From a candidate division WOR-3 bacterium (lineage in GTDB: Bacteria; Hydrothermota; Tepidihabitantia; Tepidihabitantales; Tepidihabitantaceae): a DNA stretch of 64,000 nt. A model generated the notes under the pieces. It ran no database searches. It was not told the origin of the DNA and saw only the letters and a program-made list of their open reading frames with translations. Numbering within the stretch: the first letter of the stretch is position 1; each line of letters begins with the position of its first letter. This document shows, piece after piece, positions 9,450 through 59,672 of this stretch. Where the stretch lies: NCBI GenBank assembly GCA_965649165.1, contig CBFGJT010000003.1, forward strand, positions 30,826-94,825, written 5' to 3'. The translations under genes were made by a program, and so were the position numbers.

Positions 9450-9457
9450 GAGATTAA

Positions 9458-9485
9458 AAAATACAAATTTCAAATCCGCTGTCAA
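9458..9485 (-). promoter_or_regulatory. Candidate promoter of the hydrogenase operon
   Basis: Minus strand TTGACA (9485..9480), 16-nt spacer, TATTTT (9463..9458), then 8 nt to the in-frame TTG at 9449. Confidence 0.45.
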
Positions 9486-9547
9486 GAAAATTAAGTAAGA
9501 ATTCACCACGCTTGACCCAGGAAATTATTCCAGCAGAATTTCGCACA

Positions 9548-28050: not shown

Positions 28051-28090
28051 AAAAAAGAGGGCGGGGACGAGCACTCGTCCCCGCCTTTAA
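28051..28090. terminator. Bidirectional rho-independent terminator between convergent ompA-family and pilD genes
   Basis: 11-bp GC-rich stem GGCGGGGACGA/TCGTCCCCGCC (28060..28070 / 28075..28085) with a 4-nt loop. An A6 run precedes it, giving a T-run on the minus strand, and TTT follows it. Confidence 0.8.
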
Positions 28091-28092
28091 TT

Positions 28093-28890
28093 TCACGGCA
28101 TCATCAGCTTCAGATACCAGTCAAAAATCTCCCTCCCTGCGAACAGCCCAACCACACCACCCAGCGCCAGAAACGGTCCGAACGGCACCTCCTGACCTTT
28201 CTTCAGCCGGCCAATAATTCTCCCGGCAAGACCGAAGATCGCGCCAGTAACTACCGCCACTGCCAGTGCCACAATCATACCCTTTCCACCTGCAAAAGTC
28301 CCGATCATTGCGGCAAACGGCAGATCACCCCAGCCCATCGCCTCCCTTTGCCTCACCCCCATGCGGGAAAATGGCCGGGCCAGCACAAACCGCCACAACG
28401 CCCAAGCAAAAAAGACAAAGCCGGCTCCGATTACCGCGCCCCAAAATGCTTCTTTAATCGTGACCCGAAACATCGGAATCAGAGCAGTCACCAGCCCTAC
28501 GATTAACCCGGCAAATGACAGCTCGACCGGCAGGATCTTGTGGTCAAAATCGATACCGGCAAGTACAATGAGCAAGCTGATAAAAATTAGAACACGTGCA
28601 AGTTGCCAAGAAAAACCGAACCTGGCATAACTGACGAGAAAGAGCAGGGCGGTAATACCTTCAATCAGCGGGTACCGGAGCGAGATCGGCTGATGGCAAT
28701 CCCGGCATCTGCCCCGTAATATCAGATAGCTGATAATCGGAATATTATCGTAAGCCCGGATTCGTTTCTTACAGCGGGGGCAGTGTGACGGCGGGTAGCT
28801 GATTGATTGCCCCCTGGGGATACGCCAGATACAAACATTGAAAAAACTGCCCAGAATCAGCCCTAGCAACCCGATAATGACCCAGTTCAC
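28093..28890 (-). CDS. pilD: Prepilin peptidase / N-methyltransferase (A24 family)
   Basis: FFNVCIWRIP..CPRCKKRI..YLILRGRCRDCHQPISLRYPLIE zinc-finger region followed by a polytopic peptidase domain. Confidence 0.9.
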   Translation of the reverse strand: MNWVIIGLLGLILGSFFNVCIWRIPRGQSISYPPSHCPRCKKRIRAYDNIPIISYLILRGRCRDCHQPISLRYPLIEGITALLFLVSYARFGFSWQLARVLIFISLLIVLAGIDFDHKILPVELSFAGLIVGLVTALIPMFRVTIKEAFWGAVIGAGFVFFAWALWRFVLARPFSRMGVRQREAMGWGDLPFAAMIGTFAGGKGMIVALAVAVVTGAIFGLAGRIIGRLKKGQEVPFGPFLALGGVVGLFAGREIFDWYLKLMMP

Positions 28891-30023
28891 TGCCCCTTGG
28901 GTCCCGGTGCAGAAACCGGCGCCTCCGTTGGCGAGAACATCTTTTTGTCGTTTGCTGCCGCATAAGCCACTTCTGGAGAAATCAACCCTTTCTTAAGTAG
29001 CAACTCAAGACTCTGATCCATGGTCTGCATCCCGTATTGCGAACCGGTCTGCACCAGAGAAGGAATCTGATGAACCTTCGCCTCCCGGATCAAATTCTTG
29101 ATTGCCGGTGTCGCGATCAACACCTCCATTGCTGCTACCCGCCCCCGGCCATCCTTGCGCGGCAAAAGCGTCTGGGAAATAATACCGCGGATGACACTAG
29201 CAAATATCTGGCGGATATACTCCTGCTGATCTGCTGGGAAGACATCAATCACCCGATCCACCGTTTCTGCTACGCTTTTAGTATGAAGTGTCGAAAGCAC
29301 GAGATGGCCGGTTTCCGCGGCGGTCAACGCCAGACTGATCGTTTCCAGATCTCGCATCTCCCCGACCAGTATTACATCCGGGTCTTCACGGAGGCAGGCA
29401 CGGAGTGCCGAAGCAAACGAACGGGAATGGGTATCGATCTCCCGTTGACTGATCAGACAGTTCCGGGGACGAAAGATATACTCAATCGGATCCTCAATCG
29501 TAATAATTCGAACCGCCTGTTCCTGATCTATCAAGTCAATCATACTCGCCAGCGTCGTAGATTTGCCACATCCTGTCGGACCGGTCACCAGCACAAGCCC
29601 GGAGTGTGATCGCGCCAGTTCCGCGACTGATGGCGGTGCTGGCAATTCCTCTAAAGTCCTGATTTTCGCCGGAATTATCCGGAAAGCGGCACCGATTCCG
29701 TTCAGGTCCAGAAACACATTCACGCGGGCACGAACCCGTTCCGGAGTTGTATATTCAAGTGTCAGCGCTTCCGCTACCAGCCGTTGAGTAGCAGCACCCC
29801 AAGTGTAAGAAAGGTCAATCTCCTTCTTGCTCTTTACCGCCTGCTTCTGTTCCTCAGTGAGAATAGAAGAGACCAGCGCTTCCGCATCATCTGCAGTCAG
29901 CGCCGGCCCTGGAATTTTTTTTAAACGGCCGTTAACCCGGATGATCGGTGGGTTACCGGCTGTTATATGAAGATCTGAGGCACCATATTTAGCTGCATAC
30001 CTCAGCAGTTCATCAATGTTCAT
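28887..30023 (-). CDS. pilT: Type IV pilus retraction ATPase PilT-like
   Basis: ASDLHITAGNPPIIRVNG, Walker A GPTGCGKST, REDPDVILVGEMRD, TGHLVLSTLHT and AIKNLIRE all match PilT. There is a ~20-aa insertion in the N-terminal domain. Confidence 0.9.
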   Translation of the reverse strand: MNIDELLRYAAKYGASDLHITAGNPPIIRVNGRLKKIPGPALTADDAEALVSSILTEEQKQAVKSKKEIDLSYTWGAATQRLVAEALTLEYTTPERVRARVNVFLDLNGIGAAFRIIPAKIRTLEELPAPPSVAELARSHSGLVLVTGPTGCGKSTTLASMIDLIDQEQAVRIITIEDPIEYIFRPRNCLISQREIDTHSRSFASALRACLREDPDVILVGEMRDLETISLALTAAETGHLVLSTLHTKSVAETVDRVIDVFPADQQEYIRQIFASVIRGIISQTLLPRKDGRGRVAAMEVLIATPAIKNLIREAKVHQIPSLVQTGSQYGMQTMDQSLELLLKKGLISPEVAYAAANDKKMFSPTEAPVSAPGPKGQ

Positions 30024-30074
30024 CGTTCGGTGGTCACTGCTCCTGCCTTTTACTTTTTAGACCACCTACCTTTT

Positions 30075-31670
30075 TTATCCCTCCGAATTAATGATATGTG
30101 GAATTATGAAAATCATCAAATCGCTTTTTGTCCGCTCCACTGAAGTCTTCTTGAACAGATGACCTAAAATGGGAATATCACCCAGCAACGGAATTTTGCC
30201 GACGCTACGCGTCTCATCCTCTCGCACAAGTCCGCCAATAACTATAACTTCATCCTCAGCAACCTTAACCTGAGTCTCTGCCTCACGCCGGGCAACAATC
30301 GGCTGCCGGTCATCGGCCGAACCTACCCAGCCGGTAATTGCTTCAACCGAGGGACGGACATGCATGGTGATCATACCGTCAGAGGTCACATGGGGTGTCA
30401 CCTCCAGTTTGATCGGAATGGAGCGCGTCTTCCAGGTGTAGGTAATTTCTCCCGTATTGGGGTCTTTATGTACCTCCCGGATCGGAACATCGATTCCCAT
30501 ACTTACGCTTGCCGGCTGATTGTCGAGAGTCAGAGTTCTCGGATTAGCCAGCACCCGCGAACGCCCACGCGAACTCAGCACTTCCAGCGCCGCACTGAAC
30601 CGGGCAAAAGAAATCTTTCCGAAAAGCATCTCTTTAACAATAACCGGAATCGCTACCTCTTCGCCGATTTTCGGCAGTTCAGTTCCAAACGAAGCTACCG
30701 GTGTCCAGTCAATACCCCACCGATCCTCAGCCGAATGGGTTGTTTCAATAAACTTTGCTTCAATTGCAATCTGCGGTACCGGCCGGTCAAGCTCGGCGAT
30801 GATCTTTGCCACCTCATCCAGTGCCTCGGGTACATCAGAAACCACCAGCAGGGCACTGCGTGTTGCCGCACCCGCCTGGGTCCCGACGCGCCGATATCCC
30901 GGTACGGCCTCTCCGACCGGCGAAAGCACCTTTTTGATCGCTTTTAATGCATCTTCAGCCTCCACATAATCCAGATTGAACACCCTCGTCTGGAGCTCCC
31001 CGTACATCTCCTTCTTGACCGGCTTGACAATCAACACTCCACTCCGGTCTTCAACGATATTGCAGCCCGCTGCCTTGACCAGCGCCTCCAAACCCGCCCG
31101 CAGCGGCACCTCATTCAACCGAACGCTCACAATCGACTTTACATCCTGGGTGATCATCAGGTTGAGGTCAAACTGCCGTGCCAGCATCCGTAATACACTC
31201 GTCACCTCAGCATCCTGAACCAGCAGTGTCAGCGGTGGTTTGCCGCTGAACTGGTCTTCGGGTTCCGCCGCTGGCGGAGGTGGCAATGGCTGGGTTCCGA
31301 GGCTGATAGTAATAACGCCATTTTCATTAGTAATCCGGTGCCGGACCAGCTGCCGGAGCGAAACTGTCACTCGAACACCGCTCGTTGCCTCACTCGGTTT
31401 CACAGTAACCGCAGTTACGGGATAATAGCTTGAGCTGATCCGCTCCTGCGCAAGCTGCGAAACTCCGTCCATGACATCAACGATGACTGCCGGCGGCTGC
31501 TGAGATACAAACGAACTGATATTCGGAGTTCCGCTACAGGCAATTGTTACCCGCACTTCATCCAGGAGCTTGTCGATTGCCACATCCTTGACCGCTACCT
31601 GTGCCTGTGCCGTAGACAGGACACTCAGAAACAAAAATACTGGCAAAAATATGGTTACTTTTTTATTCAT
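30075..31670 (-). CDS. pilQ: Type IV pilus secretin with N-terminal AMIN domain
   Basis: Signal peptide and AMIN-like N-domain. Secretin C-domain ...VIVIGGLVRED..GKIPLLGDIPILGHLFK....DLMIFIIPHI. Confidence 0.85.
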   Translation of the reverse strand: MNKKVTIFLPVFLFLSVLSTAQAQVAVKDVAIDKLLDEVRVTIACSGTPNISSFVSQQPPAVIVDVMDGVSQLAQERISSSYYPVTAVTVKPSEATSGVRVTVSLRQLVRHRITNENGVITISLGTQPLPPPPAAEPEDQFSGKPPLTLLVQDAEVTSVLRMLARQFDLNLMITQDVKSIVSVRLNEVPLRAGLEALVKAAGCNIVEDRSGVLIVKPVKKEMYGELQTRVFNLDYVEAEDALKAIKKVLSPVGEAVPGYRRVGTQAGAATRSALLVVSDVPEALDEVAKIIAELDRPVPQIAIEAKFIETTHSAEDRWGIDWTPVASFGTELPKIGEEVAIPVIVKEMLFGKISFARFSAALEVLSSRGRSRVLANPRTLTLDNQPASVSMGIDVPIREVHKDPNTGEITYTWKTRSIPIKLEVTPHVTSDGMITMHVRPSVEAITGWVGSADDRQPIVARREAETQVKVAEDEVIVIGGLVREDETRSVGKIPLLGDIPILGHLFKKTSVERTKSDLMIFIIPHIINSEG

Positions 31671-31673
31671 GAT

Positions 31674-32129
31674 TTACTCCCCCAGTATCAAAGTAAATGT
31701 CCTTCCACCCTGTTCCAGAGTTACTCTGTCCTGCGCAATGCTTACGACTCGTTTACCGCTGATCTGATCGCCAACCTGAACGATTTGATCATTTATCAAC
31801 GCACTTGCCCCATCACTGGTAACTGTGATCGCCCGCAGATTCAGATTGGCAACCTCGCTCATCAGCATCCAGTCACGGACAAAGGGATCACTCCCCCAGA
31901 CAATCGGCTCCGCAACAGCCGATTGAGTCCTTTCTTGGACAAGCGATGCCGCGGCCTCCTGCACCGCCGACTTTAACTGCGCAGCCTTACCCCGAACCGT
32001 TTGTGTCACCTCGGTGGTTGCTGCACTGGTAATAACCCGAGGTTCCACTTCCGGTCTTGAACGGGTAAGGGTAAATACCGCCAGCACCGCTACTGCCAAA
32101 CCTAAAATTACCAGTAATCTCTGTCTCAA
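31674..32129 (-). CDS. PilP/GspC-like small periplasmic pilus-assembly protein (tentative)
   Basis: N-terminal TM helix. C-terminal ALINDQIVQVGDQISGKRVVSIAQDRVTLEQGGRTFTLILGE beta-domain motif. Position between pilO and pilQ. Confidence 0.45.
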   Translation of the reverse strand: MRQRLLVILGLAVAVLAVFTLTRSRPEVEPRVITSAATTEVTQTVRGKAAQLKSAVQEAAASLVQERTQSAVAEPIVWGSDPFVRDWMLMSEVANLNLRAITVTSDGASALINDQIVQVGDQISGKRVVSIAQDRVTLEQGGRTFTLILGE

Positions 32130-32165
32130 GGTGCTCCTTTCTTTTTTAAAATAGCCAACATTAAT

Positions 32166-32723
32166 TTAGCTTCTCCTTCGCTGGGTAAAATAACTTGGTG
32201 GCAGCAGGCTTTCTCCCACGCGAATTGTAGTTCGCCGACCAAACGCCTCGACCTCAATCCGGTCGGTGCCGATGGCAACAATCTTACGCCCCATTACTAC
32301 ATCCCCGACCCGGACTCGACGGTTATCAATTAGAGCGTAACTGTCATCCCCGAGGGCAACAATCGCCTTGACCACATAGTAAGTTCCCTTCCGGCTTGCC
32401 ACTTTCCGTCTCCCCCGACGGCTGCGTGCATATTTCAGCATCCGGCGCCGCTCCCGCTCCTGCCTTTTCAACTCCCGTTTCCGCTTGCGCTCCTCAGCCC
32501 GCAGCCGCTTGCGCTCGGCAGCGCGCTCCTCCTTTGTTTTTGCCTTCAACCGCCCCGCTGTCCTGCCCTGAGCTGCGGTACTCCGCTGGCCAGAGGGGGA
32601 AATTGAATCGGACCGAGCGGCTTTGCGGCTGGGACGAGCAGCAGGACTGGACTTCCTGAAGAGCAAAACACCCCCTACCACTACCACCGCCGCAACAATC
32701 AGAACCAGAATAATCCGTCTCAC
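32166..32723 (-). CDS. Second PilP/GspC-like protein with a highly charged K/R/E linker (tentative)
   Basis: TM helix. RAAERKRLRAEERKRKRELKRQERERRR segment. C-terminal ALIDNRRVRVGDVVMGRKIVAIGTDRIEVEAFGRRTTIRVGE is paralogous to the downstream gene. Confidence 0.4.
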   Translation of the reverse strand: MRRIILVLIVAAVVVVGGVLLFRKSSPAARPSRKAARSDSISPSGQRSTAAQGRTAGRLKAKTKEERAAERKRLRAEERKRKRELKRQERERRRMLKYARSRRGRRKVASRKGTYYVVKAIVALGDDSYALIDNRRVRVGDVVMGRKIVAIGTDRIEVEAFGRRTTIRVGESLLPPSYFTQRRRS

Positions 32724-33295
32724 AAATCACCCCTGCCCGCAAGACTTGAGGCGTAAATATTCACCAGCAGTTTTGCCTCTACCTCGGGTCGAATATCCTC
32801 ACGGGCATTGAAATCGAAATCCGGCACCCGGACAAAATAAGGATAATCGCCCAGACTCTCAACAAACCTGCCGATATCCAGATACCGACCCTGAACCGTT
32901 ACCATAAACGGCACCGGCCTGACTTGGGCACTTGGACCTTCCTCCTGCAACAAGGTATCCAACCCAGGTGGTCTGATTTCAAGAAAATGGACGCGCTTTG
33001 CTTCGGCCTCCCGAGCGAGACCACGGAAGAGACTGAGCATCTGAGAACGGGGCACTACCCTTGCCCAGATTCCGCTGATCTCTGTCTCCAGCTGCTCCTT
33101 GCGTTGGCGCAGCTTGGGCATCTGGGCAATTCGCGCTCTGGTCTCATCCAGCTGCTTCTGCAGCTCCCGGATTTCCGTCACAGTCTTCTGTCTTGCCCGA
33201 ATCCTGGGTTGATAGAGCAGAAACCATGCTCCCACGCCGAGCACCACATAGATTATCAGACCGATCAGAACTACCCTTCTTTCAAATAGATTCAT
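32720..33295 (-). CDS. pilO: Type IV pilus assembly protein PilO-like
   Basis: TM helix, coiled coil, then ferredoxin-like C-domain (...VTVQGRYLDIGRFVESL...). Operon position after pilMN. Confidence 0.65.
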   Translation of the reverse strand: MNLFERRVVLIGLIIYVVLGVGAWFLLYQPRIRARQKTVTEIRELQKQLDETRARIAQMPKLRQRKEQLETEISGIWARVVPRSQMLSLFRGLAREAEAKRVHFLEIRPPGLDTLLQEEGPSAQVRPVPFMVTVQGRYLDIGRFVESLGDYPYFVRVPDFDFNAREDIRPEVEAKLLVNIYASSLAGRGDL

Positions 33296-33298
33296 ATG

Positions 33299-34903
33299 CT
33301 ACTCCGTCACACATTGAATTTCAAACTCCAGCACCGTCTCACCTTGGAGACTGCTGCGGTTCTTGGAAACGAGCTGTACCTGTTTGAATGATGGACTGCG
33401 CTCCAGGTCGATTAGAAACTGTGCCAGGTCAACATCAAGCAGATGGGGCTCGCCGCTTACTACTCCGGTCAGTTTCACATTTGTCCGGTTTGTCAGTGTG
33501 AAAGTGTTCAGCTGGATGTTCTGAGGTACAATGGTGGAGACCTTCGCCATCACTGGCACCGCTGGCATCACTTCCCCCACAACACTGGTCAGCGCCTTTT
33601 GCCTTGCCTCCAGCTCTGAAATTTCCTTCTCCAGCTCAAAGTAGTTCCGATTCTGCTCTTCAGTTGCCTTGATTTCATTTCTGAGCCGTGACACCTGCCC
33701 CTTGGAAATACCCGACCAACCGGCAACGACTATGTAACCGACGATCAGAACCCCCACCCAGAGAATGCCGCCGAGCGTCATCATCCTGATATCCCGGGCA
33801 ACAAACTTGCCCGTCTTCATCTCCACCGGCAGCAGGTCGACCGCGGTATGATCATAATACAGACCGAGTGCCGCAACCAGCCGATAACCGATTTCCTCCT
33901 GAGGAGGTGTTCCAGGGCGATAAAGACCGAAGTCCTTGAACGGATCAAAAATCTCCGTCGGAATCCCCAAGCTCGTCTGCAGATATTCCCGCAACCCCTT
34001 CAGTGCAGCTGTACCACCACAGATGAGCAACCGATCCACCTTCTGTTCGCCAAATTCACGACGGTAGAAATCGATTGAACGGTTAATTTCCGCCACAAAC
34101 CGTTCCAGCGCCGGACGCTGGAGCGTTGCCAGACGCTTGACCATAATTCCGGAAGGCAGCCGCTCCGTGGAATCCTCAGGGGGAATTCCGTACTTGCGCT
34201 TGAGCTCCTCAGCATCATAGGCGTCCAGCGCCAGCTGTCCTTCCTCGGTGGTAATTGCAACCGTCATTGCCTCGGTAATCGCATTGCCAGCAGTTGTCAC
34301 CGTGCGCGCCAGGTCCAGCCGTTCACCTTTCATAAAAATAATATCGGTAAACTCGGCACCGATATCCAGCAGACAGATAACCTCATCCGGGCGAACCCGG
34401 CCGTACTTCTTTACCGCTGCCTGCAGTGCAAACGGAATGACACTGATTGATGAAGGTTCCAGTCCCGCTTTGCGCAGTGTCGAGATATGGTCGGAAACAA
34501 TGTCCTTGCGCGCGGCGATGACCATCACATTGTCCTTGATCGCTCCCGCCTCACGCACCGGACCAAGGGTCTTGAAGTCAAAAATGGCTTCATCGAGCGT
34601 AAATGGTGAGTACTTGTCCAGCCGCAGCAGAATCGCATCCTTTAACTCACGCCGGTTCATCTTGGGGAATGGCGCCTGACGAACACTCACCGATGGACCG
34701 GATACAAAAGTGTAAACCTCGCGCGGCTTGTAGTCCTTGATCAACTCCCGGAGAATTGAGGGCACGTCAAACGCTTCGCCGATTTCCTTCAGTCCGTAAT
34801 CGACGATCCTGCCACCCTCAACCTTGACAAATTTAACTGAATTCGAACCGATATCAATACAGAGGGTGCCCTTACCACCCCCGCCAAAGACTTTAGACGC
34901 CAA
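33299..34903 (-). CDS. pilM: PilM-PilN fusion protein
   Basis: Actin-like ATPase PilM region (LCIDIGSNSVKFV, LLDIGAEFTDI, LLICGGTAALKGL). Followed by a TM helix (MMTLGGILWVGVLIVGYIVVAGW), a coiled coil and a PilN-like C-domain. Confidence 0.8.
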   Translation of the reverse strand: MASKVFGGGGKGTLCIDIGSNSVKFVKVEGGRIVDYGLKEIGEAFDVPSILRELIKDYKPREVYTFVSGPSVSVRQAPFPKMNRRELKDAILLRLDKYSPFTLDEAIFDFKTLGPVREAGAIKDNVMVIAARKDIVSDHISTLRKAGLEPSSISVIPFALQAAVKKYGRVRPDEVICLLDIGAEFTDIIFMKGERLDLARTVTTAGNAITEAMTVAITTEEGQLALDAYDAEELKRKYGIPPEDSTERLPSGIMVKRLATLQRPALERFVAEINRSIDFYRREFGEQKVDRLLICGGTAALKGLREYLQTSLGIPTEIFDPFKDFGLYRPGTPPQEEIGYRLVAALGLYYDHTAVDLLPVEMKTGKFVARDIRMMTLGGILWVGVLIVGYIVVAGWSGISKGQVSRLRNEIKATEEQNRNYFELEKEISELEARQKALTSVVGEVMPAVPVMAKVSTIVPQNIQLNTFTLTNRTNVKLTGVVSGEPHLLDVDLAQFLIDLERSPSFKQVQLVSKNRSSLQGETVLEFEIQCVTE

Positions 34904-34926
34904 TTTGCCTCCTTATGTCCAGAAAT

Positions 34927-36069
34927 TTACCGCGGTCGGACACTGAATTCCGAACCATCGTTAAACCTCAGCCGGAAAAGTTGATTGTATATGTTACTCG
35001 TATCCCCGCCGGTCGGGGTTTTGGAAAAATTGTAAAAACTGAATTCAACCACTTCCTCGCCATTAGGTGAAATCACAAATGGTCCGGGCATGATAATCAG
35101 AGAATCACCTTTGCCGACGCCTGGATTATACTCCCATTGCCGCTGTTCGTGATTGCGAATATAAAGCCATCGCATATAGGCGCTGTCCGGTGCCTCAATG
35201 AAACTGATCGTCCGGACCGTATCCGGAACTTCCCCCGGGTTTACGATCCAAATGGTAAATCCCGAACTGTCACCGGAAATTCTCGGCGTCCCGACCATCT
35301 GCAGATAATTTCGAAACAGGTGGCTGAAACGAAAATCAATCACCGTCCGGCTCCGCGGTACCACCGTCACCCACTTAACAATCGAATCACCGCCGGGCCG
35401 ACGGGCAATGATTTTGTGATTGCCAATCGGAATGCCACCCTGTACCGTTGCCGGCGTGAATTCGTAATAACCACCGGCATCGGGTCGGGTAAAAAATGTA
35501 GTCCCGTTCGGCAGATAAAGGTAGATACCGACTGTTGCCGCCTTATCGCCCGGCGGATTGTTATTGGCATCGGTAACAGTGCCGATAATACTGTTGTTTG
35601 TAAGGTGAACAACTGAATCCACGACCCTGATGGTCATCGGATACTTCCCGTTGCCGATTGTGGCAATTGTACCGGTGGTGGGATTATAAGTATACGGGTT
35701 ACCCCAGGCATCGTAGCGGTAACCAACACTGTCCTGCAAAAACTCCCGCCGCAGGTAAGGACCGCGCCAGTTGGGAGAATTACTCGTGTTTTCCACCAAC
35801 TCGCGCAGGTCATTCGGCAATCGCATCATATCGCCATAAAATCCGAAATCAACCCGATGACCATTAGCAGTGATCTCCGGATTGCCCACCATCGCATGGG
35901 ACAGCTCCCGCATCTCCTTCAGCGTCTGATCAAACAGCGACCGATCCCGGGTGGCATCGATCGTCCGGATTGCGACCGTGCTCAGAATTCCGATGATCAA
36001 CAACACCACCAGCAACTCCATCAGGGTAAACCCATGTGCCTTGACTTGACTTCTCATTTTCCACCTCAC
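34927..36069 (-). CDS. GspG-like pseudopilin/minor pilin with large C-terminal extension
   Basis: Prepilin signal ...KAHG|FTLMELLVVLLIIGIL. GNPEI..G..VDFGFYGDMMRLP..WRGPYL...YDAWGNPYTY. Alternative start at 36057. Confidence 0.75.
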   Translation of the reverse strand: MRWKMRSQVKAHGFTLMELLVVLLIIGILSTVAIRTIDATRDRSLFDQTLKEMRELSHAMVGNPEITANGHRVDFGFYGDMMRLPNDLRELVENTSNSPNWRGPYLRREFLQDSVGYRYDAWGNPYTYNPTTGTIATIGNGKYPMTIRVVDSVVHLTNNSIIGTVTDANNNPPGDKAATVGIYLYLPNGTTFFTRPDAGGYYEFTPATVQGGIPIGNHKIIARRPGGDSIVKWVTVVPRSRTVIDFRFSHLFRNYLQMVGTPRISGDSSGFTIWIVNPGEVPDTVRTISFIEAPDSAYMRWLYIRNHEQRQWEYNPGVGKGDSLIIMPGPFVISPNGEEVVEFSFYNFSKTPTGGDTSNIYNQLFRLRFNDGSEFSVRPR

Positions 36070-36866
36070 ATGTTATTCCAGTCCACGCTCAACCGGACTT
36101 CGATTCCCCGCGCACCAACGCGCGGAAATACTGTCACCGCTCTGGTAACTGTATCACATCGCGGCGGCGGCGGATAATAGTGCCAGACCATCACCCTTAA
36201 AGTCTGGACCCCCTGTGGGACATCCCGGAACTCAAACAGACCATTGGTTGCCGGTGTATAACTGTCCCGGTACAGCACCCCCTGACGCGGGTACTCCAGC
36301 TGAACGGTAATCCTCGGTAGAATTGAATCCGGTGGTGGCACACCACGCTGGTCCACAATTGAACCGTCAACTATATTGTGCAGCAGATCATTAAGACTGT
36401 AACCCAGTGATTTGGTAATCCAGCGCTTCCAATCAACCAGCCCTCCGCCGCCAAAGCTGCGCAGAAACAGACTGTCACGCTCAAATACAATCGTATCACC
36501 CCAACCATCAATCCGGTAGCCTTCCGGCGATTCATTGAAAGTTGCCTTGATATAAGGCCCCCGCCAGCGGCTGCTCTCGGGCGGTGAAACCCAGCTGGGT
36601 GGACTCACCAGATCGCTGAGCGTGCGGGGAAGTGCACCCATGTCGCCAACAAAACCGAAATCCGCCCGGACCCCTCCCACCACATAATCCGGATCGCCGG
36701 TAATCACCTTTGCCAGCCGGTCCAGCTTCTGCCGGGTCTGTTCAAAACGGCCCCGCTCCAACGTCACATCCCAGGTCTTGATTGCGGCGGTCAGAATCAC
36801 ACTCAGAATCATAATTACTACCAGCAGTTCAATCAGGGTCACACCACGATTATAATGCCGGTTCAT
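36066..36866 (-). CDS. GspG-like pseudopilin/minor pilin
   Basis: MNRHYNRG|VTLIELLVVIMIL prepilin signal. GDPDY..G..ADFGFVGDMGALP..WRGPYI..DGWGDTI. Confidence 0.75.
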   Translation of the reverse strand: MNRHYNRGVTLIELLVVIMILSVILTAAIKTWDVTLERGRFEQTRQKLDRLAKVITGDPDYVVGGVRADFGFVGDMGALPRTLSDLVSPPSWVSPPESSRWRGPYIKATFNESPEGYRIDGWGDTIVFERDSLFLRSFGGGGLVDWKRWITKSLGYSLNDLLHNIVDGSIVDQRGVPPPDSILPRITVQLEYPRQGVLYRDSYTPATNGLFEFRDVPQGVQTLRVMVWHYYPPPPRCDTVTRAVTVFPRVGARGIEVRLSVDWNNM

Positions 36867-36867
36867 A

Positions 36868-37479
36868 TCAGAACCTCACTTTGATATCATCATTTTTGAC
36901 CGCACCAGGCTGACCCCAAAAAAGACCGTCCGGGCCGGCACTCACCAAACCGAGCGTCTCATTGTTCTCCACCCAGTAACGGTATTCGGTTCCCCAAGCG
37001 TCATAGAGATAACCCATCTCCCCGTCTTCGCGGATGTAGGGTCCGTTCCAGCCCTTCTGAATATAGGGGTCCCAGGCAGGCAGGGTCTCTTTCCCCACAT
37101 ACAACCGCTGGGCATAAATGCCCTCAAACGGGTTACGGGTTGCCAGTTCAATCAGATTCCGAGGCAACCTTCCCACATCCTGCTTGAAACCGTAACCGAC
37201 CGCCTCACCGCCAATCCGAAGGTCGGGATTGCCCATGATTGCCTCACGTAGGACATTCATCTCCTGCAGGGTGGCGGTGCGCCGAGCGTTGTTTGCTACC
37301 CGGGAAATCATCGTTGGAACAAAAAAAGCCAGGAGAATTCCCAAAACGGAAATAACGACCAGCAGCTCCACCAAGGTGAACCCGCGCCTTGATCTGTCTC
37401 TGGCGGTCACAAATTTCATTATAGAAATCTCTCCCGCTCCTGTCAAGGACAAACACCGGTCCATGCTAACCCCCTTCAT
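36868..37479 (-). CDS. GspG-like pseudopilin/minor pilin
   Basis: ..SRRG|FTLVELLVVISVLGIL. GNPDLRIGGEAVGYGFKQDVGRLP..WNGPYI..YDAWGTEYRY. TGATG overlap at 37479. The alternative start at 37419 (MKFVTARD..) gives a more typical leader length. Confidence 0.75.
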   Translation of the reverse strand: MKGVSMDRCLSLTGAGEISIMKFVTARDRSRRGFTLVELLVVISVLGILLAFFVPTMISRVANNARRTATLQEMNVLREAIMGNPDLRIGGEAVGYGFKQDVGRLPRNLIELATRNPFEGIYAQRLYVGKETLPAWDPYIQKGWNGPYIREDGEMGYLYDAWGTEYRYWVENNETLGLVSAGPDGLFWGQPGAVKNDDIKVRF

Positions 37480-38015
37480 CAGTTGTGCAGCACAAAAATC
37501 ACTGCATCGCCATCCGCATCAAAATCCCGGATTGAGGAACCGCTGTGATCAATGCCCAATAAACCGTAATGAGTCGGATAGGCGGAACCGGGCGGGTCAT
37601 AAACCTTGTAAACGATATTGCCGGGATCATAGCCGTAGACATCATTCGGACCGTATTCATCGGTATTACTGATTTCCGTGAGATCATCATAATCCTCGGG
37701 ATTGAACTCATCTGGATCCATCTCCTTGCCGCTGTAGGGATTGGTCGGCAGTTTACCAATCCGGACATCATACTCCCCGCCGGGGAACACGCATCCGTAT
37801 CCATCCTCGTAAAAGTCCTCAGCATAATAACCGAACTCCTGATGAAATACCTCAATGGCAGTCTGGACATTGTGCAGGTTCATCTTCATCGCGGCAATCC
37901 TTGCCTGATTGCGCAGCCCGGAAAATCTGGGCACTGACATTCCCATCAACACACCCAGAATCATAATTACCACCAAAAGTTCAACGAGCGTAAAGCCGCG
38001 ATTTTTGTGACACAT
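37479..38015 (-). CDS. Acidic type IV pilin-like protein (paralogue of 40769..41404)
   Basis: Start at MCHKNRG|FTLVELLVVIMILGVL, preceded by AAGGAG and 5 nt. C-terminus ...AVIFVLHN and the PTNPYSG motif are shared with the upstream pilin. Confidence 0.8.
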   Translation of the reverse strand: MCHKNRGFTLVELLVVIMILGVLMGMSVPRFSGLRNQARIAAMKMNLHNVQTAIEVFHQEFGYYAEDFYEDGYGCVFPGGEYDVRIGKLPTNPYSGKEMDPDEFNPEDYDDLTEISNTDEYGPNDVYGYDPGNIVYKVYDPPGSAYPTHYGLLGIDHSGSSIRDFDADGDAVIFVLHN

Positions 38016-38063
38016 AAAATCTCCTTTGCTAAATAATAGTAATTGATTCATATCTGTCAAGTT

Positions 38064-38960
38064 TTATCCTGAGCCCTGCCGACTAGGGGGTGTGGTTGTC
38101 CGGACCTTGTCACCGTCAAGATAAAACCTGCCGCCATAGGGCTCTTCGGGCAGGACCGGCAGATAACCCCGCTGTCTTAACTCCTCGATACTGCCCGGCA
38201 CCCTCTTTTCCTTCTGGATAAACTGGTTGACCGCACGCTGAATTTCCGCCAGCCCCTCCTCCAGCTTCAACCACTTCAGCTGCCGGACAATCAGCTCCTT
38301 CAGTTTCTTATTGTCAGTGCTGTAATACAGGTCCTTCCACATCTCGCGGGCGCTGGCATAATCACCGCTCCGGGCAGTAGCATACGGCACCCAGCGCTCG
38401 ATGATCGGCCAGGCATCAGGCAGTCGGGCTGCAATCTGAAACAGCCGGGCTGCTGCCTGATAGTCACCAATCAGGATATAATTGATAAATCCAGCATCAA
38501 ACGGCAGCTGCCAGTTGAGCGGATTTGCCTTCATGCCATTCATGAGAAAGCGCAGTGCCGCTGCCGGATTGTGGGCATCCCAGGCAAGCGTGATCGCCCC
38601 GAAGTGATAGGCGCCGATAAACCGTGGGTCAAGCGTAGTCAGAATTTCAAAGATATGACCCAGCCATTCGTAGCGCCGGTCAGTCTGCTGATGCCGACCA
38701 TAATAATCAATTGCGGCCAGCCAGATGAAATCGGCGGCAAGCTCCTCATACTCAATCACCATCTCCCGCAGGGCAACTCCAGAGGGAAAATAGGCAAGCT
38801 CCTGCATCAGCCTTTCCCCGGCCCGGCGGCTAGTGGCATCAAGTGACAGCTGCAGCAGATAGATGCCGACAAATCCCCAGATCACCAGCACTACGGGCAG
38901 CAGGGAAACAAGCACGCCGGGTTCCCGCGGCATCGGTCGGGTGATCTCAACCAGCCTCAT
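38064..38960 (-). CDS. Membrane-anchored TPR-like helical repeat protein, unknown function
   Basis: One N-terminal TM helix (VLVSLLPVVLVIWGFVGIYLL), then alpha-helical repeat-like sequence (..GDYQAAARLFQIAARL.., ..GDYASAREMWKDLY..). Overlaps the permease stop by 1 nt. Confidence 0.5.
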   Translation of the reverse strand: MRLVEITRPMPREPGVLVSLLPVVLVIWGFVGIYLLQLSLDATSRRAGERLMQELAYFPSGVALREMVIEYEELAADFIWLAAIDYYGRHQQTDRRYEWLGHIFEILTTLDPRFIGAYHFGAITLAWDAHNPAAALRFLMNGMKANPLNWQLPFDAGFINYILIGDYQAAARLFQIAARLPDAWPIIERWVPYATARSGDYASAREMWKDLYYSTDNKKLKELIVRQLKWLKLEEGLAEIQRAVNQFIQKEKRVPGSIEELRQRGYLPVLPEEPYGGRFYLDGDKVRTTTPPSRQGSG

Positions 38961-39727
38961 CAGAAGTCCCGCCGGTTGAAGACGAAAATGGCGATTAAAA
39001 GCAGGGTGAAGGTGTAAACCAGCGCATAGGCAATCGACAGCAACATTGCCAGCGGATTGAGCGGTGCATTGTGGACAACATCGCCCCGGATGTTGAAATT
39101 ATTCAGATTGGGCAGGAGATAATAAAGAAACATACCGATGAACTTGACAACTGGTGCCGGACTGATTGCCGCCAGCTGACGCAGGAGCTGAGTGCTGTGA
39201 CCGATAAAATAGACAACAAAGGTGAACACCGCGCTGGCGATCGGTGTGACAAATGTGGAAAACAGGACCGCAACAGCGGTCAGAATCGCCAGCTCAAAGC
39301 CGGTCATCAATACCGCCCAGAGCAGACGCGGCGCCGGTTTAACCCCGGTCAGAAGCAGCACCAGATAAAATCCGGCGGTCATCAGCACCAGACTCACCCC
39401 AAGCACCAGCATCATCCCGCAGTACTTGCCGATGATGAACTCATAGCGCCGCACCGGCCGGGCAAGCAGCAGATAAATCGTCCGCTTCTCCACCTCCCGG
39501 TAGACAATCCGACCGCCGACCAGTATCGCAATCAGTACACAGAACAGGGTAATCGCGGAAAGCCCCAGGTCCTTGATAATCTTTTCTGCCTCGCCCAAAG
39601 CCACCGGCTGGATCACCTTGGCGCTTGCCATAACGATTATTGCGATCACAATCAGCGCCACCAGCACCCGATCCCGGACCGATTCCCGGAAGGTGTTGAA
39701 GGCAATGCCCCAGATCCGGTTAAGCAT
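38960..39727 (-). CDS. ABC-2 type transporter permease
   Basis: Six-TM protein with the N-terminal FRESVRDRVL motif typical of ABC-2/NosY/GldF-like permeases. 1-nt overlap with the ATPase gene. Confidence 0.75.
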   Translation of the reverse strand: MLNRIWGIAFNTFRESVRDRVLVALIVIAIIVMASAKVIQPVALGEAEKIIKDLGLSAITLFCVLIAILVGGRIVYREVEKRTIYLLLARPVRRYEFIIGKYCGMMLVLGVSLVLMTAGFYLVLLLTGVKPAPRLLWAVLMTGFELAILTAVAVLFSTFVTPIASAVFTFVVYFIGHSTQLLRQLAAISPAPVVKFIGMFLYYLLPNLNNFNIRGDVVHNAPLNPLAMLLSIAYALVYTFTLLLIAIFVFNRRDF

Positions 39728-40683
39728 TACACCCCTCCGTTTCTATTTGCACCCCGCACCCGGGCCATGAAGAACTCCTCAAGTGTCAGGGAACGGGGAA
39801 TGATTGAGCGCACCTTCGCCTGTGCCTCGCGGACAATTGCCAGCACCCGCTCCACCTCCTCATCACTCTTCACAGTCAAAAGGAGTAGGTCGCCGGATTC
39901 AATCGAACGCTGGGCGATCCGTTCCAGACCTTTTCGAAACTTACCGCTCACGCCCTGCAGGGTAATCTCGATTGACTCCACCTCCCCGGTCAGAATCTCG
40001 CTCAGTCTGCCGATCTCCACCATCTTGCCGCCGACAATAATCCCCACCCGGTCGCAGATCATCTCCACATCGGCCAGAATATGGGTGGAGAAGAATACCG
40101 TCTTCCCCTGCTCACGCAGGCTGACAATAATATCCCGGAACTCCTTTCTGCCGATCGGGTCCAGTCCGCCCATCGGTTCATCCAGAATTACAACCTCCGG
40201 GTCGTGGATCAGCGCCTGAGCAATCCCGATCCGCTGGAGCATTCCCCGCGAAAAACCGCGCATCTGCTGATTTGCCGCATGCTCCATCCGCACCAGCTTC
40301 AGCATCTGCCGGAGCCGACCCGGGATGTCGCTGTGGGGCACACCGGAAAGCTGGGCGGTCAGAGTTAAAAATTCGGCCGCGGTCAGATACTCATAAAAAT
40401 ACGGAGACTCAGGCAGAAAACCGATCCGCCGCTTCACCCGCGGGTCGCGCGGTGCCCGGCCCAGCACTGTGGCAAAACCGCTGCTGGGCTGGGCCAAACC
40501 GATAACGATTTTGATCGTTGTGGTCTTGCCCGCACCATTAGGTCCTAAGAACCCGAAAATTTCCCCCCGCTCCACCTGCAAGTTAAGCTCCGAGAGCGCC
40601 TGCACCCGTTTCATCCGGAAACCGGTCCGGTAGGACTTACTCAGCCTGACGGTCTCAATTACCGGCTGATTAACCACCGCCAC
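39727..40683 (-). CDS. ABC transporter ATP-binding protein
   Basis: Walker A GPNGAGKTT, signature FSRGMLQRIGIAQAL, Walker B VVILDEP. Start moved to the GTG at 40683 (or 40677). The longer track ORF (to 40989) crosses a terminator, a promoter and the pilin gene. Confidence 0.85.
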   Translation of the reverse strand: MAVVNQPVIETVRLSKSYRTGFRMKRVQALSELNLQVERGEIFGFLGPNGAGKTTTIKIVIGLAQPSSGFATVLGRAPRDPRVKRRIGFLPESPYFYEYLTAAEFLTLTAQLSGVPHSDIPGRLRQMLKLVRMEHAANQQMRGFSRGMLQRIGIAQALIHDPEVVILDEPMGGLDPIGRKEFRDIIVSLREQGKTVFFSTHILADVEMICDRVGIIVGGKMVEIGRLSEILTGEVESIEITLQGVSGKFRKGLERIAQRSIESGDLLLLTVKSDEEVERVLAIVREAQAKVRSIIPRSLTLEEFFMARVRGANRNGGV

Positions 40684-40689
40684 AAACTG

Positions 40690-40718
40690 AGTATAAAAAT
40701 TAATTATGCTCAGGTCAA
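40690..40718 (-). promoter_or_regulatory. Leaderless-type promoter of the ABC + type IV pilus operon
   Basis: Minus strand TTGACC (40718..40713), 17-nt spacer, TATACT (40695..40690), then 6 nt to the GTG at 40683. No SD. Confidence 0.65.
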
Positions 40719-40752
40719 GAAAAAGAAAAGCGGGGTGGATTTCCACCCCGCG
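40719..40752 (-). terminator. Rho-independent terminator of the major pilin gene
   Basis: Minus strand GCGGGGTGGAAATCCACCCCGC followed by TTTTCTTTTTC, 16 nt after the pilin stop. Confidence 0.85.
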
Positions 40753-41509: not shown

Positions 41510-41538
41510 TCTCATTCATATTATAACAAACTTATGGC
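41510..41538 (-). promoter_or_regulatory. Perfect consensus sigma70-type promoter of the major pilin gene
   Basis: Minus strand TTGACA (41538..41533), 17-nt spacer, TATAAT (41515..41510). ~100-nt leader ending in AAAGGAGG. Confidence 0.75.
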
Positions 41539-41572
41539 TCTCTGTCAAGCAGAAATTTGCCATCCCGGCAAA

Positions 41573-45935: not shown

Positions 45936-48900
45936 CTACTTGAGATAAACCGCCTTGGTCGTCATTATCTGCTCTTCACTCTCCAGTCGAACCAGATAGA
46001 CACCCTGTGCCACCCGGCTACCGGCATCATCCCTACCATCCCAGATCAGCTCGTATCCGCCCGGAGCAAGCCTGCGGTCAATCAACGTGCGGACCCGGCG
46101 TCCGGCTTTGTCATAAACCGCAACCCGGACCGCTGAACCCTGACTCAGCAGGAAGTGAATCTGCAGCCGGCTCCGGAATGCGGTCGGCAGCATGCTGACA
46201 CCGGTGAGAACCAGACCGGACATACTCCTGGTTTCTGCCAGCCCGACTGAGGGTGCATCGGTGGTCAACTTGATCGCCCGGCCCGGCACGATCGGTCCGG
46301 CAGCCCGGTGGAAGGTATCGTTGTAGACCACCTGAATCGCAATCGTCAAACTCGGATCCTGTTCGCCGATGGTGGCACTTGAGTTCCAATTCGCAGTCAG
46401 GTACTGATAGATTACCTCGGTATTACCGTCAGCAGCTGCCAGCGTTGTGTCATAGAAGACAATCTGCATTTTGTCCCAAGAGTCGCGCGGGTTGTAGTAA
46501 TGGACCGAATCCCACTCAACGATAAACCGGTGGTTTGCCGCATCATGATAATACCACACACCATTTCCGATCGGCGGATACAGATCGTCCCATTTGAGAC
46601 AGAACATCGGTGGCATCTGGCTGTTGGGCAACTGGGTATTAGACCAGGTGGTGGTTGTTGTGTAACCCGGTGCCACCCAGCCGTTGGAACAGATTGAGAT
46701 CTGGGTGTAGCGCTGACCATAGAACTTGATCGGACCAAACGCCGGCGGCAGGGTGATCTGTACCGTTTGGTCGTCATTCAGAGTAAGCCGGGTTCCGAGA
46801 TTGCGGATTTCAACCCAGGAGAAGGTCGGACGCTCCGCATACTCCACATCAATGTCATCATAGGCATAGTAGAGCGCGGGTTGACGCGGTCCGTCCGGGA
46901 TCGGGTCAATGGCGGTCAACCGACCCACCTCAATCCCGAAATAAACGGTCCGATCCGGATAACCGGTCTGGCTGATCCGCAGACTGCACGGAATAACAAA
47001 CTCGCGGGGAATTGATGCACTTGCCCGCACCCGGAAATGATCCGCCTCATTCATAGCCCAGGAGTCGGCAGGAATGAATCCGTAGAGGGCGCTGGAATCC
47101 AGAACCTCAAGCCGGGAATCAAGCGACCAAAGCACCACCTGCACATCGTAGGCGTTCCCCAGCCCGGAATTTACGAGCTGAATCGCAATGTCACACTCCT
47201 CACCGGGATCAAGCTTGCCATTACCGCCGTCATAGGCATAGACCGAATCACCGGCCAGCACCGGTGTGCCCACCTTCAGTTTCAGTGGTGAAACCCAGAC
47301 CGAATCCTGATCGTCCTGGACCACCAGCTCAAAATTGAGCGTGTAGCCATTGACACAGGAGTCGTCAACCGTAAACTGGAATCCGGGCAGGCCGGAAAAT
47401 GCGGTGTCACCTGCTTGGATCGTGCCGAAGCTCTTCACCGAATCGGTAATGGTGATGTGGCTCGAGTCTGAGGTCCGCAGGATGCCGGTTACCCCGCTGG
47501 TTGTATAGCTGCACTGATTCTTCACCCAGACCGGCAGATTGATCGCCTCGCCCGGATTGATAATCCGGTCATTATTGCCGCCTGCCGAATCATCAATAAT
47601 CGCCCGATACAGCCTAACCCCGAATGGCAACGGTGTGTTCTCAATGCACAGTTTGGCGTCAATTCTGCCTGTGCCGTAGGTATTGTTCTTCGGCGGTGTT
47701 CCGCGGGGCACAACCGAATACTGCATGATTGAATCAATCTCCTCGGGCAGAAGCAACGGATTCTTCTCCAACATCAGCGCCGCCACCCCGGCAGCACACG
47801 GTGTTGCCATTGAGGTCCCGGACATTCCGACATAACCGCCACCCAGCCGGCAGGAAACCACATCCACACCCGGTGCGGAAAAATCCGGTTTCAGCAAACC
47901 GGGGGGATAGGCATAGTCATTGTACGGCGGAATACTTGACCAGGAGACCGGACCCCAGGAAGTGAAATAGGCATAGTTGTCCGCCGAGTCGGTGGCACCG
48001 ATCGAAATCGCTCCACCCAGACCGCCTGCCATCTCTGCTGGATGCTTCCAAGGACCGGGGACATCACCCGGCGTCCGGACATTGTCCGGTGGACTGCTCG
48101 ACCCCTCATTACCCGCCGCGATGAAGTAGGGGAGCCCGGCAGCCGCCACATTGGTTACCGCCTGACGCCAGAGTGCCCGTCGGGGATTCCAGGAGTGCCA
48201 CCAGCCCAGGCTCATCGAAAGCAGGTGGGCATGATTCTCTGGCGACAGTGGCGGTGCGACGCAGAACTCCATTGAGCGGAAGACCGTATTTTCCGCAATT
48301 GTATCCGGCAGTGGTGAACTGAGGCTGGTTTTGGTCCGGCAGCTCATAACCTTGGCACCGGGAGCAATGCCGGTCGTATCACCACCTGTGCCGTCACCGA
48401 CATTAATTCCGCAGGTATGGGTGCCATGACCATTCGAATCCATCGGGTCGTTGTCGTTGTTCTCAAAGTCCCAGCCGTGATAGGGGTAGTTCGGGTCGGT
48501 CCACATCCGATTTGCCAGATCCGAGTGGTTGTAATCACAGCCGGTGTCGATATTGCCGATCACCACCCCCTGTCCGGTATAGCCGTAGACATACCAGACG
48601 CTGTCCGCCTTGACCTTGCGCACATGCCACTCCCGGCTGTCCGTTCCGCCGGTAACATCGGCTGCGGGCTGCTGCGGTGCAAGCCCGAGCGCATTCTCGG
48701 TCGGAATCAAATCCCACTGGACAAACCAGACATCAGCCCGCTCTGCCACCTTCAGAATCGCTTCGGAAACCAGTTCGCAGTAAACCGCATTCACAATCCA
48801 GAGCGGCGTGATGTTGCGTGCCTTACCTTCCTGTTCCAACCGGCTCAGCTCCTGAAGCAGACCCTGCTGGGTCCGGGCAGCAAGCTCCTTTAAACCGCTG

Positions 48901-49173: not shown

Positions 49174-49201
49174 TTGACACTCCTATTAACCCGGTTATAA
49201 T
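49174..49201 (+). promoter_or_regulatory. Promoter of the riboswitch-btuB transcript
   Basis: TTGACA, 16-nt spacer, TATAAT, directly upstream of the riboswitch P1 stem. Confidence 0.6.
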
Positions 49202-49205
49202 AACC

Positions 49206-49391
49206 GCCGATCGTGGTCGACCCGGAAAACGGGTTGCCCGGAATCGGGCACAGGGAACGCCGTGAAAATCGGCGGCGGTCTCGCCCACTGTGAGCGGCAT
49301 TTTTACGCCCCATCAATGCCACTGGCTTCGGCTGGGAAGGCGATGGAGTGCGGCCGCAAGCCAGGAGACCTGGCCACGGTCAGAAGATCGG
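49206..49391 (+). promoter_or_regulatory. Cobalamin (B12) riboswitch
   Basis: CAGGGAACGCCGTGAAAATCGGCG core, CGCCCACTGTGAGCGG, GCCACTGG....GGGAAGGC, and the B12 box AGCCAGGAGACCTGGCC. P1 pairing of CCGATCGTGG with CCACGG..GATCGG. Located upstream of a TonB-dependent receptor. Confidence 0.85.
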
Positions 49392-49419
49392 TTTAACTTG
49401 CGCAGAAAGGAGAACCGCA

Positions 49420-59586: not shown

Positions 59587-59635
59587 GGTTCAATATAACA
59601 TATTTCTTCTCTGATGCAACCATCGCATCCCCGAT

Positions 59636-59664: not shown

Positions 59665-59672
59665 CCACTATT

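Follow-up and report, generated by a model that had tools for sequence, protein, structure and literature searches.

The PilGHI module and its probable counterpart in a WOR-3 bacterium

Myxococcus xanthus has a single operon, pilA-pilG-pilH-pilI (MXAN_5783-5780), that is essential for S-motility and whose products are annotated as a pilin, an ATP-binding cassette (ABC) transporter accessory factor, an ATP-binding protein, and a permease (PMC3546991). The operon goes back to Wu, Wu, Cheng & Kaiser 1998, as that work is cited in PMC3546991 and PMC3724824, and deletion mutants of pilG, pilH, and pilI are without pilin and pili (PMC3724824). Here, we analyze an arrangement of like composition in 64,000 nt of DNA from a candidate division WOR-3 bacterium (GCA_965649165.1, contig CBFGJT010000003.1, positions 30,826-94,825 of the forward strand), referred to below as the window. 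An ABC ATPase, an ABC-2 permease, and a 298-aa protein resembling tetratricopeptide repeat (TPR) proteins are encoded side by side within a type IVa pilus (T4aP) gene cluster, and from their sequences we infer that this trio is probably the WOR-3 version of the PilH/PilI/PilG module.

In myxobacteria and Bacteriovorax, PilG has no Pfam domain, PilH matches ABC_tran, and PilI matches ABC2_membrane_2, with the order pilC-pilA-pilG-pilH-pilI-pilD in Bacteriovorax marinus (PMC6060248 supplement). PilI is at least 250 codons long (PMC5544727), and the window permease has 255 aa. A further case is xapD (GSU1501) of Geobacter sulfurreducens, whose mutant has no detectable PilA (bioRxiv 10.1101/114900) and which has been described as a sugar/exopolysaccharide ABC transporter within a polysaccharide operon (PMC5585712). 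By its locus tag, xapD lies a few genes from pilC/pilS (GSU1493-1494). We take it to be downstream of pilA (GSU1496). The PilG, PilH, and PilI discussed here are unrelated to the proteins of the same names in Pseudomonas (Chp system) and to Neisseria PilG, a platform protein.

An ABC transporter linked to pilA is therefore already known, from Myxococcus genetics since 1998 and from the Geobacter counterpart, and the trio is not a new kind of system. The initial annotation of the window had held the combination of ABC and pilus genes to be undescribed, a view that does not survive comparison with pilA-pilG-pilH-pilI of M. xanthus, which is of like composition (PMC3546991, PMC6060248), and with Geobacter xapD. 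Published modules of this composition come from Myxococcales and Desulfuromonadales, and a requirement for pilin or piliation is known only for M. xanthus pilGHI and, in the case of xapD, for Geobacter. ABC transporters go unmentioned in a recent, comprehensive review of how type 4 filaments are assembled, and our search of the WOR-3 literature returned nothing on pili of the phylum. Modestly new are the breadth of the module's distribution and the apparent pilin-like head of PilG.

Genes were called from a listing of open reading frames (ORFs) combined with Pfam and NCBIfam scans, and the cluster lies entirely on the minus strand (Table 1). Its order is pilin 1, ABC ATPase, ABC-2 permease, TPR protein, pilin 2, 3 minor pilins or pseudopilins, PilMN, PilO, 2 PilP-like proteins, PilQ, PilT, and PilD, so that the T4aP parts present comprise PilM, PilN, PilO, PilP-like proteins, the PilQ secretin, PilD, PilT, and prepilin-type pilins. 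The gene identities and order given in the initial annotation stand. Its count of 15 genes in 28093-40718 does not, since there are 14 in that range; pilin 1, immediately upstream and absent from its gene list, brings the cluster to 15. Intergenic gaps, put there at no more than 51 nt, reach about 68 nt with revised gene starts. We consider it quite probable that the region is a T4aP supra-operon with a WOR-3 PilGHI-type ABC module and that pilB-pilC are located elsewhere.

The features of the module are found here together: an ABC_tran ATPase, a PF12679 permease in the range of about 250-260 aa, a Pfam-less third protein, and pilin adjacency in a T4aP cluster. The likeness to M. xanthus is one of annotation and gene order. 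In both, a pilin gene lies directly beside genes for a Pfam-less protein, an ABC_tran ATPase, and an ABC2_membrane_2 permease, and the module forms its own transcription unit within a T4aP cluster that includes pilD and pilMNOPQ. The order, however, is H-I-G here and G-H-I in M. xanthus, which the pilA-X-ABC-ABC2 order of Bdellovibrionota (X being the PilG-like protein) matches. The WOR-3 trio has its own predicted leaderless promoter behind a terminator, whereas in M. xanthus it shares the pilA promoter. A second pilin follows the trio here, and no pilB, pilT, pilC, or pilSR lies upstream, with pilT and pilD at the far end instead. Geobacter xapD is alike in being an ABC transporter ATP-binding protein with a PilA-loss phenotype but differs in being read as an exopolysaccharide exporter, and it is likened to the window ATPase by description.

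Table 1. Genes and predicted transcription signals of the WOR-3 pilus cluster, in the direction of transcription (positions in the window)
Feature	Position	Strand	Matches and sequence features
Predicted promoter P1 of pilin 1	41520..41548	-	TTGACA-17-TGtTATAAT, 12/12 + TG extension; ~110-nt leader
Pilin 1, PilA-like, 211 aa	40769..41404	-	N_methyl 2e-8; leader MKNRG/FTLIELL; AGGAGG ribosome-binding site + ATG
Predicted intrinsic terminator 3' of pilin 1	40730..40751	-	9-bp stem, 8 GC pairs, then T-run
Predicted promoter P2, leaderless	40690..40718	-	TTGACC-17-TATACT; GTG start 40683, 6 nt downstream
PilH-like ABC ATPase, 318 aa	39727..40683	-	ABC_tran 1.6e-26
PilI-like ABC-2 permease, 255 aa	38960..39727	-	ABC2_membrane_2 PF12679 1.1e-14
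PilG-like protein, 298 aa	38064..38960	-	predicted membrane helix at the N-terminus, then TPR-like solenoid; pilin/GspG-like head module at the C-terminus
Promoter-like site P3	38033..38060	-	TTGACA-16-TATTAT, 11/12; then AAGGAG and ATG 38015 of pilin 2
Pilin 2, 178 aa from ATG 38015	37479..38015	-	N_methyl 1e-9; leader MCHKNRG/FTLVELL
Predicted promoter P4, leaderless, heading the machine genes	37418..37446	-	TTGACA-17-TATAAT, 12/12; GTG 37410 exactly 7 nt downstream
Pseudopilin/minor pilin	36868..37410	-	N_methyl 7e-9; weak T2SSG match
Pseudopilin/minor pilin, 266 aa	36066..36866	-	N_methyl 5.6e-8
Large pseudopilin, 380 aa	34927..36069	-	N_methyl; T2SSG 2e-4; CarboxypepD_reg 1.3e-4 (weak, below cutoff)
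PilM-PilN fusion, 534 aa	33299..34903	-	PilM_2 1.8e-34, residues 26-330; PilN 1.3e-6, residues 451-531
PilO	32720..33295	-	PF04350 4.7e-12
PilP/GspC-like protein, 185 aa, Lys/Arg-rich linker	32166..32723	-	weak GspC_delta 9e-5
PilP/GspC-like protein, 151 aa	31674..32129	-	weak T2SSC/T2SSB/GspC_delta matches
PilQ secretin with AMIN	30075..31670	-	Secretin 1e-45, Secretin_N, AMIN
PilT retraction ATPase	28887..30023	-	TIGR01420, 451 bits vs cutoff 319 (PilT/PilU family)
PilD prepilin peptidase	28093..28890	-	A24_N_bact 2e-37; Peptidase_A24 9e-16
Predicted terminator closing the cluster, between convergent genes	28060..28085	-	11-bp stem, 9 GC pairs, then T-run

Linkage of the trio to pilus genes in WOR-3 and in other phyla

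Close homologues of the 298-aa protein are annotated as candidate division WOR-3. From look-ups and a metagenome scan, we assembled a set of 62 WOR-3-type loci whose PilG-like protein is at least 53% identical to that of the window, and in these the trio stays beside pil genes. The ABC ATPase and permease are kept in all 32 loci with enough upstream flank, pilin 1 in 22 of 23, pilin 2 in 47 of 48, and PilMN in 29 of 30; 20 loci are complete through PilD. The locus L029 of a close relative (7024-10359, 72% identity) has pilin 1 and the ABC trio alone, with the rest of the pilus cluster not adjacent, and pilin plus trio thus behave as a separable module. In the WOR-3 relatives L001 (4183-7365) and L107 (2983-6195), pilin 1 is immediately preceded by a 23S-5S rRNA pair in the same orientation, a place that accC and efp occupy in the window.

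Distant PilG-like proteins, 26-37% identical to that of the window, also sit within pil clusters. L005, from a Bdellovibrionales metagenome-assembled genome (MAG), and L007 have the order pilB-pilC-pilR (a sigma54 regulator)-pilA-X-ABC-ABC2, with pilA at 9443-9859 in L005, and the protein between pilA and the ABC ATPase is 26-27% identical to the window protein (E ~1e-32 to 1e-33). In L006, from an Eisenbacteria MAG, the order is pilB-pilT-pilC-pilS-pilR-pilA-ABC-ABC2-X-pilS2-pilR2-minor pilins-pilM. For the ATPase, permease, and X of these 3 loci alike, homology to the corresponding window protein spans most or all of the sequence. The order pilA-X-ABC-ABC2 recurs in 13 further Bdellovibrionota loci, making 15 Bdellovibrionota-type loci in all; a profile scan of genome contigs with the alignment of this type returned Bdellovibrionota loci only, and no Myxococcus. 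Elsewhere, the trio precedes pilD (L022), follows 2 pilins (L023), or lies directly before pilB-pilC (L098/L100). Considered as a candidate for a short Geobacter-type pilin, the 59-aa ORF that precedes the trio in L022 proved not to be one. Among the loci of 42-51% identity, a scan for prepilin motifs found no pilin adjoining the trio except in L082.

The suggestion of the initial annotation that the ABC system and the TPR protein are functional parts of the pilus apparatus is thus supported by pil linkage in the 62 WOR-3-type loci, in Eisenbacteria, in the 15 Bdellovibrionota-type loci, and in 3 further contexts. A profile of the 298-aa family retrieved 4199 representative clusters (50% identity, E<=1e-3) among 1.84 billion representatives, and with about 4200 such clusters, and pil-linked members in WOR-3, Eisenbacteria, and Bdellovibrionota, the module has a far wider distribution than the deltaproteobacterial literature suggests.

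It could be asked whether the trio is simply an unrelated housekeeping or resistance ABC-2 exporter that happens to neighbor pil genes. ABC-2/DrrA-type pairs are common and generic, the trio has a predicted promoter of its own (P2), and one lineage carries the trio without pil neighbors. Yet pil adjacency recurs in at least 6 separate arrangements across 3 named lineages despite identities of 26-37%, the third gene carries a pilin-like module, and the M. xanthus deletions abolish pili. We regard chance adjacency as quite improbable, and it is already disfavored. The lineage in question (L091/L096/L101, X 42-47% identical, trio at ~8300-10850) has the order trmD-ABC-ABC2-X-thiE/ThiD2-murJ, with no pil genes within 10 kb. 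It shows that the linkage is frequent, not universal, and that the function could be more general. The window itself has a murJ at 59388-61250, about 20 kb from the trio and unlinked to it.

The PilG-like protein and its apparently pilin-like C-terminal module

The 298-aa protein has no Pfam or NCBIfam match and no N_methyl match. Its AlphaFold2 model (mean predicted local distance difference test score, pLDDT, 79.5) contains an N-terminal membrane helix (residues 16-42), helical repeats (94-251), and a small C-terminal hairpin, and Foldseek places generic TPR proteins at the top of its matches. TPR_14 is matched by 22 of 75 family members, while the window protein itself matches no TPR model. 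The earlier description of a TPR-like membrane protein agrees with these predictions, and the C-terminus adds a module that resembles pilins.

Over the last ~60 aa, the family consensus is ...D...L..AV..Y....G..P..L..LV..G.L...P.EPFGG.Y, and the motif D-I..LE.A...Y....G.YP / ...lP.DP(W/F)G..Y in this stretch resembles that of GspG and pilin heads. A profile of this module searched against the PDB gave GspG as all of its top 8 matches (E 1.6e-4 to 7.8e-4), the next match having an E of 0.22. The model of the module (pLDDT 89.9) matched pilins or pseudopilins in 11 of 15 Foldseek matches, with template modeling (TM) scores of 0.40-0.60 over ~70 columns and E of 0.8-10. It is predicted to fold as helix, loop, and beta-hairpin, like the start of the head in GspG and type IV pilins (PDB 3g20, 3gn9, 6t8s). 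In contrast to these, the module lacks a prepilin leader, the Gly-1/Glu+5 residues, and a hydrophobic alpha1N; it is truncated and stands C-terminal, after the TPR region. On the modeled structure, the pilin/GspG-like head points to direct contact with pilins.

Some PilG-like proteins carry 2 such C-terminal modules in tandem (P0121, P0123, P0124, P0127, P0130, and P0137). A 226-aa member in L100 (9986-10666) is without the module, and pilB-pilC follow it directly.

The ABC ATPase and permease

The ATPase and permease are 36-43% (over the length of the ATPase) and 28-39% identical, respectively, to their counterparts in the pil-linked trios of L005, L006, and L007. In NCBIfam, the ATPase scores best with the DrrA subfamily (226 bits), GldA being second at 190.9 bits. 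The initial annotation had drawn a parallel with GldA/GldF of Bacteroidota, where an ABC ATPase and an ABC-2-type permease are likewise tied to surface motility. The parallel does not hold: the ATPase falls well below the GldA cutoff (190.9 versus 402.6 bits), the permease and the 298-aa protein match no NCBIfam model, including those of Gld, and no GldG-like gene is present here.

The best bacterial structure match of the ATPase is NosF (2e-48), and the sole solved relative of the permease by sequence is NosY (E 3e-3). In the NosDFY complex (PDB 7o0y), as here, an ABC-2 pair adjoins the gene for a third protein. NosDFY serves the maturation of nitrous oxide reductase; its partner protein resides in the periplasm, and the energy of ATP hydrolysis is put to use outside the cytoplasm. 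The partner here is TPR plus pilin-like, as opposed to the beta-helix NosD, and the similarity is weak (permease E 3e-3), so that we treat the resemblance as an analogy only. The window ORFs that were scanned include no nos genes.

By sequence, the best structural relatives of the ATPase are ABCA lipid exporters, and the trio might be an envelope glycan or lipid exporter, which would supply lipid-linked sugars or polysaccharide for pilin glycosylation or for the matrix with which pili operate and would affect pili only indirectly. Such a role would fit the DrrA subfamily assignment, the description of Geobacter xapD as a sugar/exopolysaccharide ABC transporter (PMC5585712), and the occurrence of the trio beside murJ in one lineage. 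It would also fit L023 (3400-10942), where the trio follows 2 pilins and a Wzy_C/TPR (O-antigen-ligase-like) gene and precedes a UDP-glucose dehydrogenase, a neighborhood suggestive, for some lineages, of a connection to pilin glycosylation. We nevertheless consider an export role unlikely. The genes scanned in the window cluster and in its WOR-3 relatives include none for glycosyltransferases or polysaccharides, the partner protein has a pilin-like head where a domain of the polysaccharide co-polymerase or OPX type might be expected, and the strongest recurring neighbor across phyla is pilA.

Location of PilB and PilC

The initial annotation described a pilus machine lacking PilB and PilC. 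For the locus, this is correct: neither was found among 38 ORFs scanned, which comprised the cluster, its immediate neighbors, and 20 ORFs of at least 272 aa elsewhere in the window (shorter ORFs outside the cluster and one ORF of 1823 aa lay outside the scan), and none of the 62 WOR-3-type loci has either of them within 10 kb of the cluster. Judging from relatives, it probably does not extend to the organism. With PilB of a related lineage as the query, many PilB proteins of WOR-3 with MshEN and T2SSE domains were obtained, and in the WOR-3 bacterium JGI_Cruoil_03_51_56 a PilB (P0382, CH330_07555) and a PilG-like protein (P0045, CH330_06075) occur in the same MAG, pilB-pilC being on another contig. 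One ENA assembly has the full 15-gene cluster on contig k141_904667 and ptsH-ptsI / pilB-pilC / gyrB on contig k141_172059. A pilB-pilC pair, which the initial annotation had proposed looking for elsewhere in the genome, is thus found in the assembly of a relative, as distinct from the window's own genome. Since that pair lies on a separate contig, the cluster is most simply explained as a split-locus arrangement.

Given only the window, one could imagine that in the WOR-3 lineage the ABC system replaces PilB and PilC as the engine of assembly, with PilT retracting, and their absence from the scanned ORFs and from up to 10 kb around the 62 loci would be what such a replacement predicts. JGI_Cruoil_03_51_56, however, has the same cluster and in addition PilB followed by PilC on another contig, many WOR-3 MAGs encode the MshEN+T2SSE PilB, and in other lineages the trio co-occurs with pilB/pilC. 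These observations leave a replacement extremely improbable.

A possible role for the module in pilin supply

We propose that the complex of ATPase and permease, here PilH2-PilI2, would be of the NosFY/ABC-2 type and would not extend the pilus; it would use ATP hydrolysis to drive PilG. PilG would be anchored in the inner membrane, with its periplasmic TPR solenoid and C-terminal pilin-like head binding pilins or the base of the pilus, and its action would keep the membrane pilin pool assembly-competent through stabilization, extraction, priming, or quality control. PilB and PilC would be encoded elsewhere as a pilB-pilC pair. An ATP-driven periplasmic adaptor is suggested by the fact that the permease and ATPase most resemble NosY and NosF, and PilG keeping the pilin pool competent would explain why pilGHI and xapD mutants are without pilin. 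Tentatively, PilG-type proteins could be membrane-anchored pilin mimics (TPR plus 1 or 2 heads) that couple a NosFY-like ATPase to the pool of pilins or to the base of the pilus, and PilHIG would then be a widespread, overlooked third ATP-driven T4aP component beside PilB and PilT; we put this forward as a possibility that may well prove wrong. It does offer a testable handle, a PilG-pilin contact driven by ATP hydrolysis in PilHI, on a neglected and mechanistically unexplained pilus component.

Several points weigh against this interpretation, in addition to the trmD/murJ lineage. The statistics of the pilin-like module are modest: its profile E of ~1e-4 covers only a ~20-residue motif, the Foldseek E-values (0.8-7) are non-significant, and with single sequences Pfam T2SSG is subthreshold and matched by 1 of 75 family members. 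The equivalence to M. xanthus is drawn from gene order, Pfam signature, protein sizes, and homology to the Bdellovibrionota proteins encoded at the place of PilG; what we infer comprises the equivalence of the window protein to M. xanthus PilG, its topology, including the periplasmic placement, and the mechanism. The placement of pilB-pilC elsewhere comes from a relative, and the promoters and leaderless starts are sequence predictions only.

Predicted promoters and terminators of the cluster

A single 15-gene operon with one promoter had been proposed for the cluster. With promoter-like sites also at 38060..38033 (P3) and 37446..37418 (P4), at least 4 such sites in total, 2 terminators, and 14 genes in the range considered, that description has to be given up, and the cluster is best described, on its predicted signals, as a supra-operon with at least 4 promoters and 2 real terminators. 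P1 together with its own terminator would define a pilin 1 unit; P2, leaderless, would drive the ABC trio; P3 precedes pilin 2 and could serve it; and P4, also leaderless, would drive the machine genes, with one terminal terminator closing the cluster.

The leaderless-type promoter that the initial annotation placed ahead of the ABC genes (40718..40690, GTG 40683) is present, and a transcript from it is predicted to be leaderless because the GTG lies only 6 nt downstream. A matching site occurs in all 23 distinct relatives, in the form TTGAC-N16-18-TAnnnT, with a start codon lying between a few and about a dozen nt beyond it. P4 is conserved as TTGAC(A/T)-N16-18-TAnnnT in 40 of 40 distinct relatives, with TATAAT in 38 of the 40 and mostly a GTG or ATG 7 nt on. 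The window is a clear example of conserved, predicted leaderless promoters within the pilus supra-operon of an uncultured phylum. P3 is present in close relatives, a strict pattern matching 12 of 48 distinct related intergenic sequences. The relative L001 has a P1-like site ahead of pilin 1 as well as an equivalent hairpin and T-run at the position of the pilin 1 terminator.

As to whether an internal promoter or terminator separates the ABC genes from the pilin genes, the promoter-like site P3 does lie between the TPR gene and pilin 2, but there is no convincing terminator between the ABC unit and pilin 2, so that read-through from the one into the other is possible. The strong terminator reported at the cluster end is present (28085..28060, 11-bp stem). 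An Rfam scan found no RNA element within the cluster.

Pilins and machine proteins

Pilin 1 and pilin 2 are paralogues, with 34% identity and a common ...FVLHN C-terminus. Pilin 1 precedes the trio at a distance of 85 nt and pilin 2 follows it after 48 nt, so that the ABC/TPR genes are sandwiched between 2 paralogous pilin genes. The best NCBIfam matches of pilin 1 are to the N-terminal parts of Myxococcus-type PilA and of GspG. For the pseudopilin at 36868..37410, the longest ORF extends to 37479, the likely start being GTG 37410. The 2 PilP-like proteins are paralogous as well, the C-terminal 54 aa of the 185-aa protein being 39% identical to the 151-aa protein; their assignment to PilP is weak, the GspC/T2SSC-like matches (1e-4 to 1e-3) lying in the C-termini. 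The best solved relative of PilT is that of Geobacter (PDB 5zfq, 5e-101), and the N-domain insert of ~20 aa noted earlier in this motor is seen against Geobacter PilT as ~18 aa at query residues ~75-92.

Other features of the window

The largest ORF of the window encodes 1823 aa (16942-22413, minus strand). A 521-aa ORF (13006-14571, minus strand) has 2 Thy1 (ThyX) matches and resembles a flavin-dependent thymidylate synthase duplicated in tandem. At 10886-12661 (minus strand) lies the gene for an FG-GAP repeat protein whose sorting domain is that of type IX secretion (Por_Secre_tail), and at 45936-49103 (minus strand) lies that for a subtilase of 1055 aa whose C-terminal domain is FlgD_ig-like; both are likely surface or secreted proteins, and the Por_Secre_tail domain fits an organism of the Fibrobacteres-Chlorobi-Bacteroidetes (FCB) group. 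A cobalamin riboswitch (Rfam RF00174, 89 bits) at 49197-49392 on the plus strand directly precedes, and overlaps the start of, a TonB-dependent receptor ORF (49348-51504).

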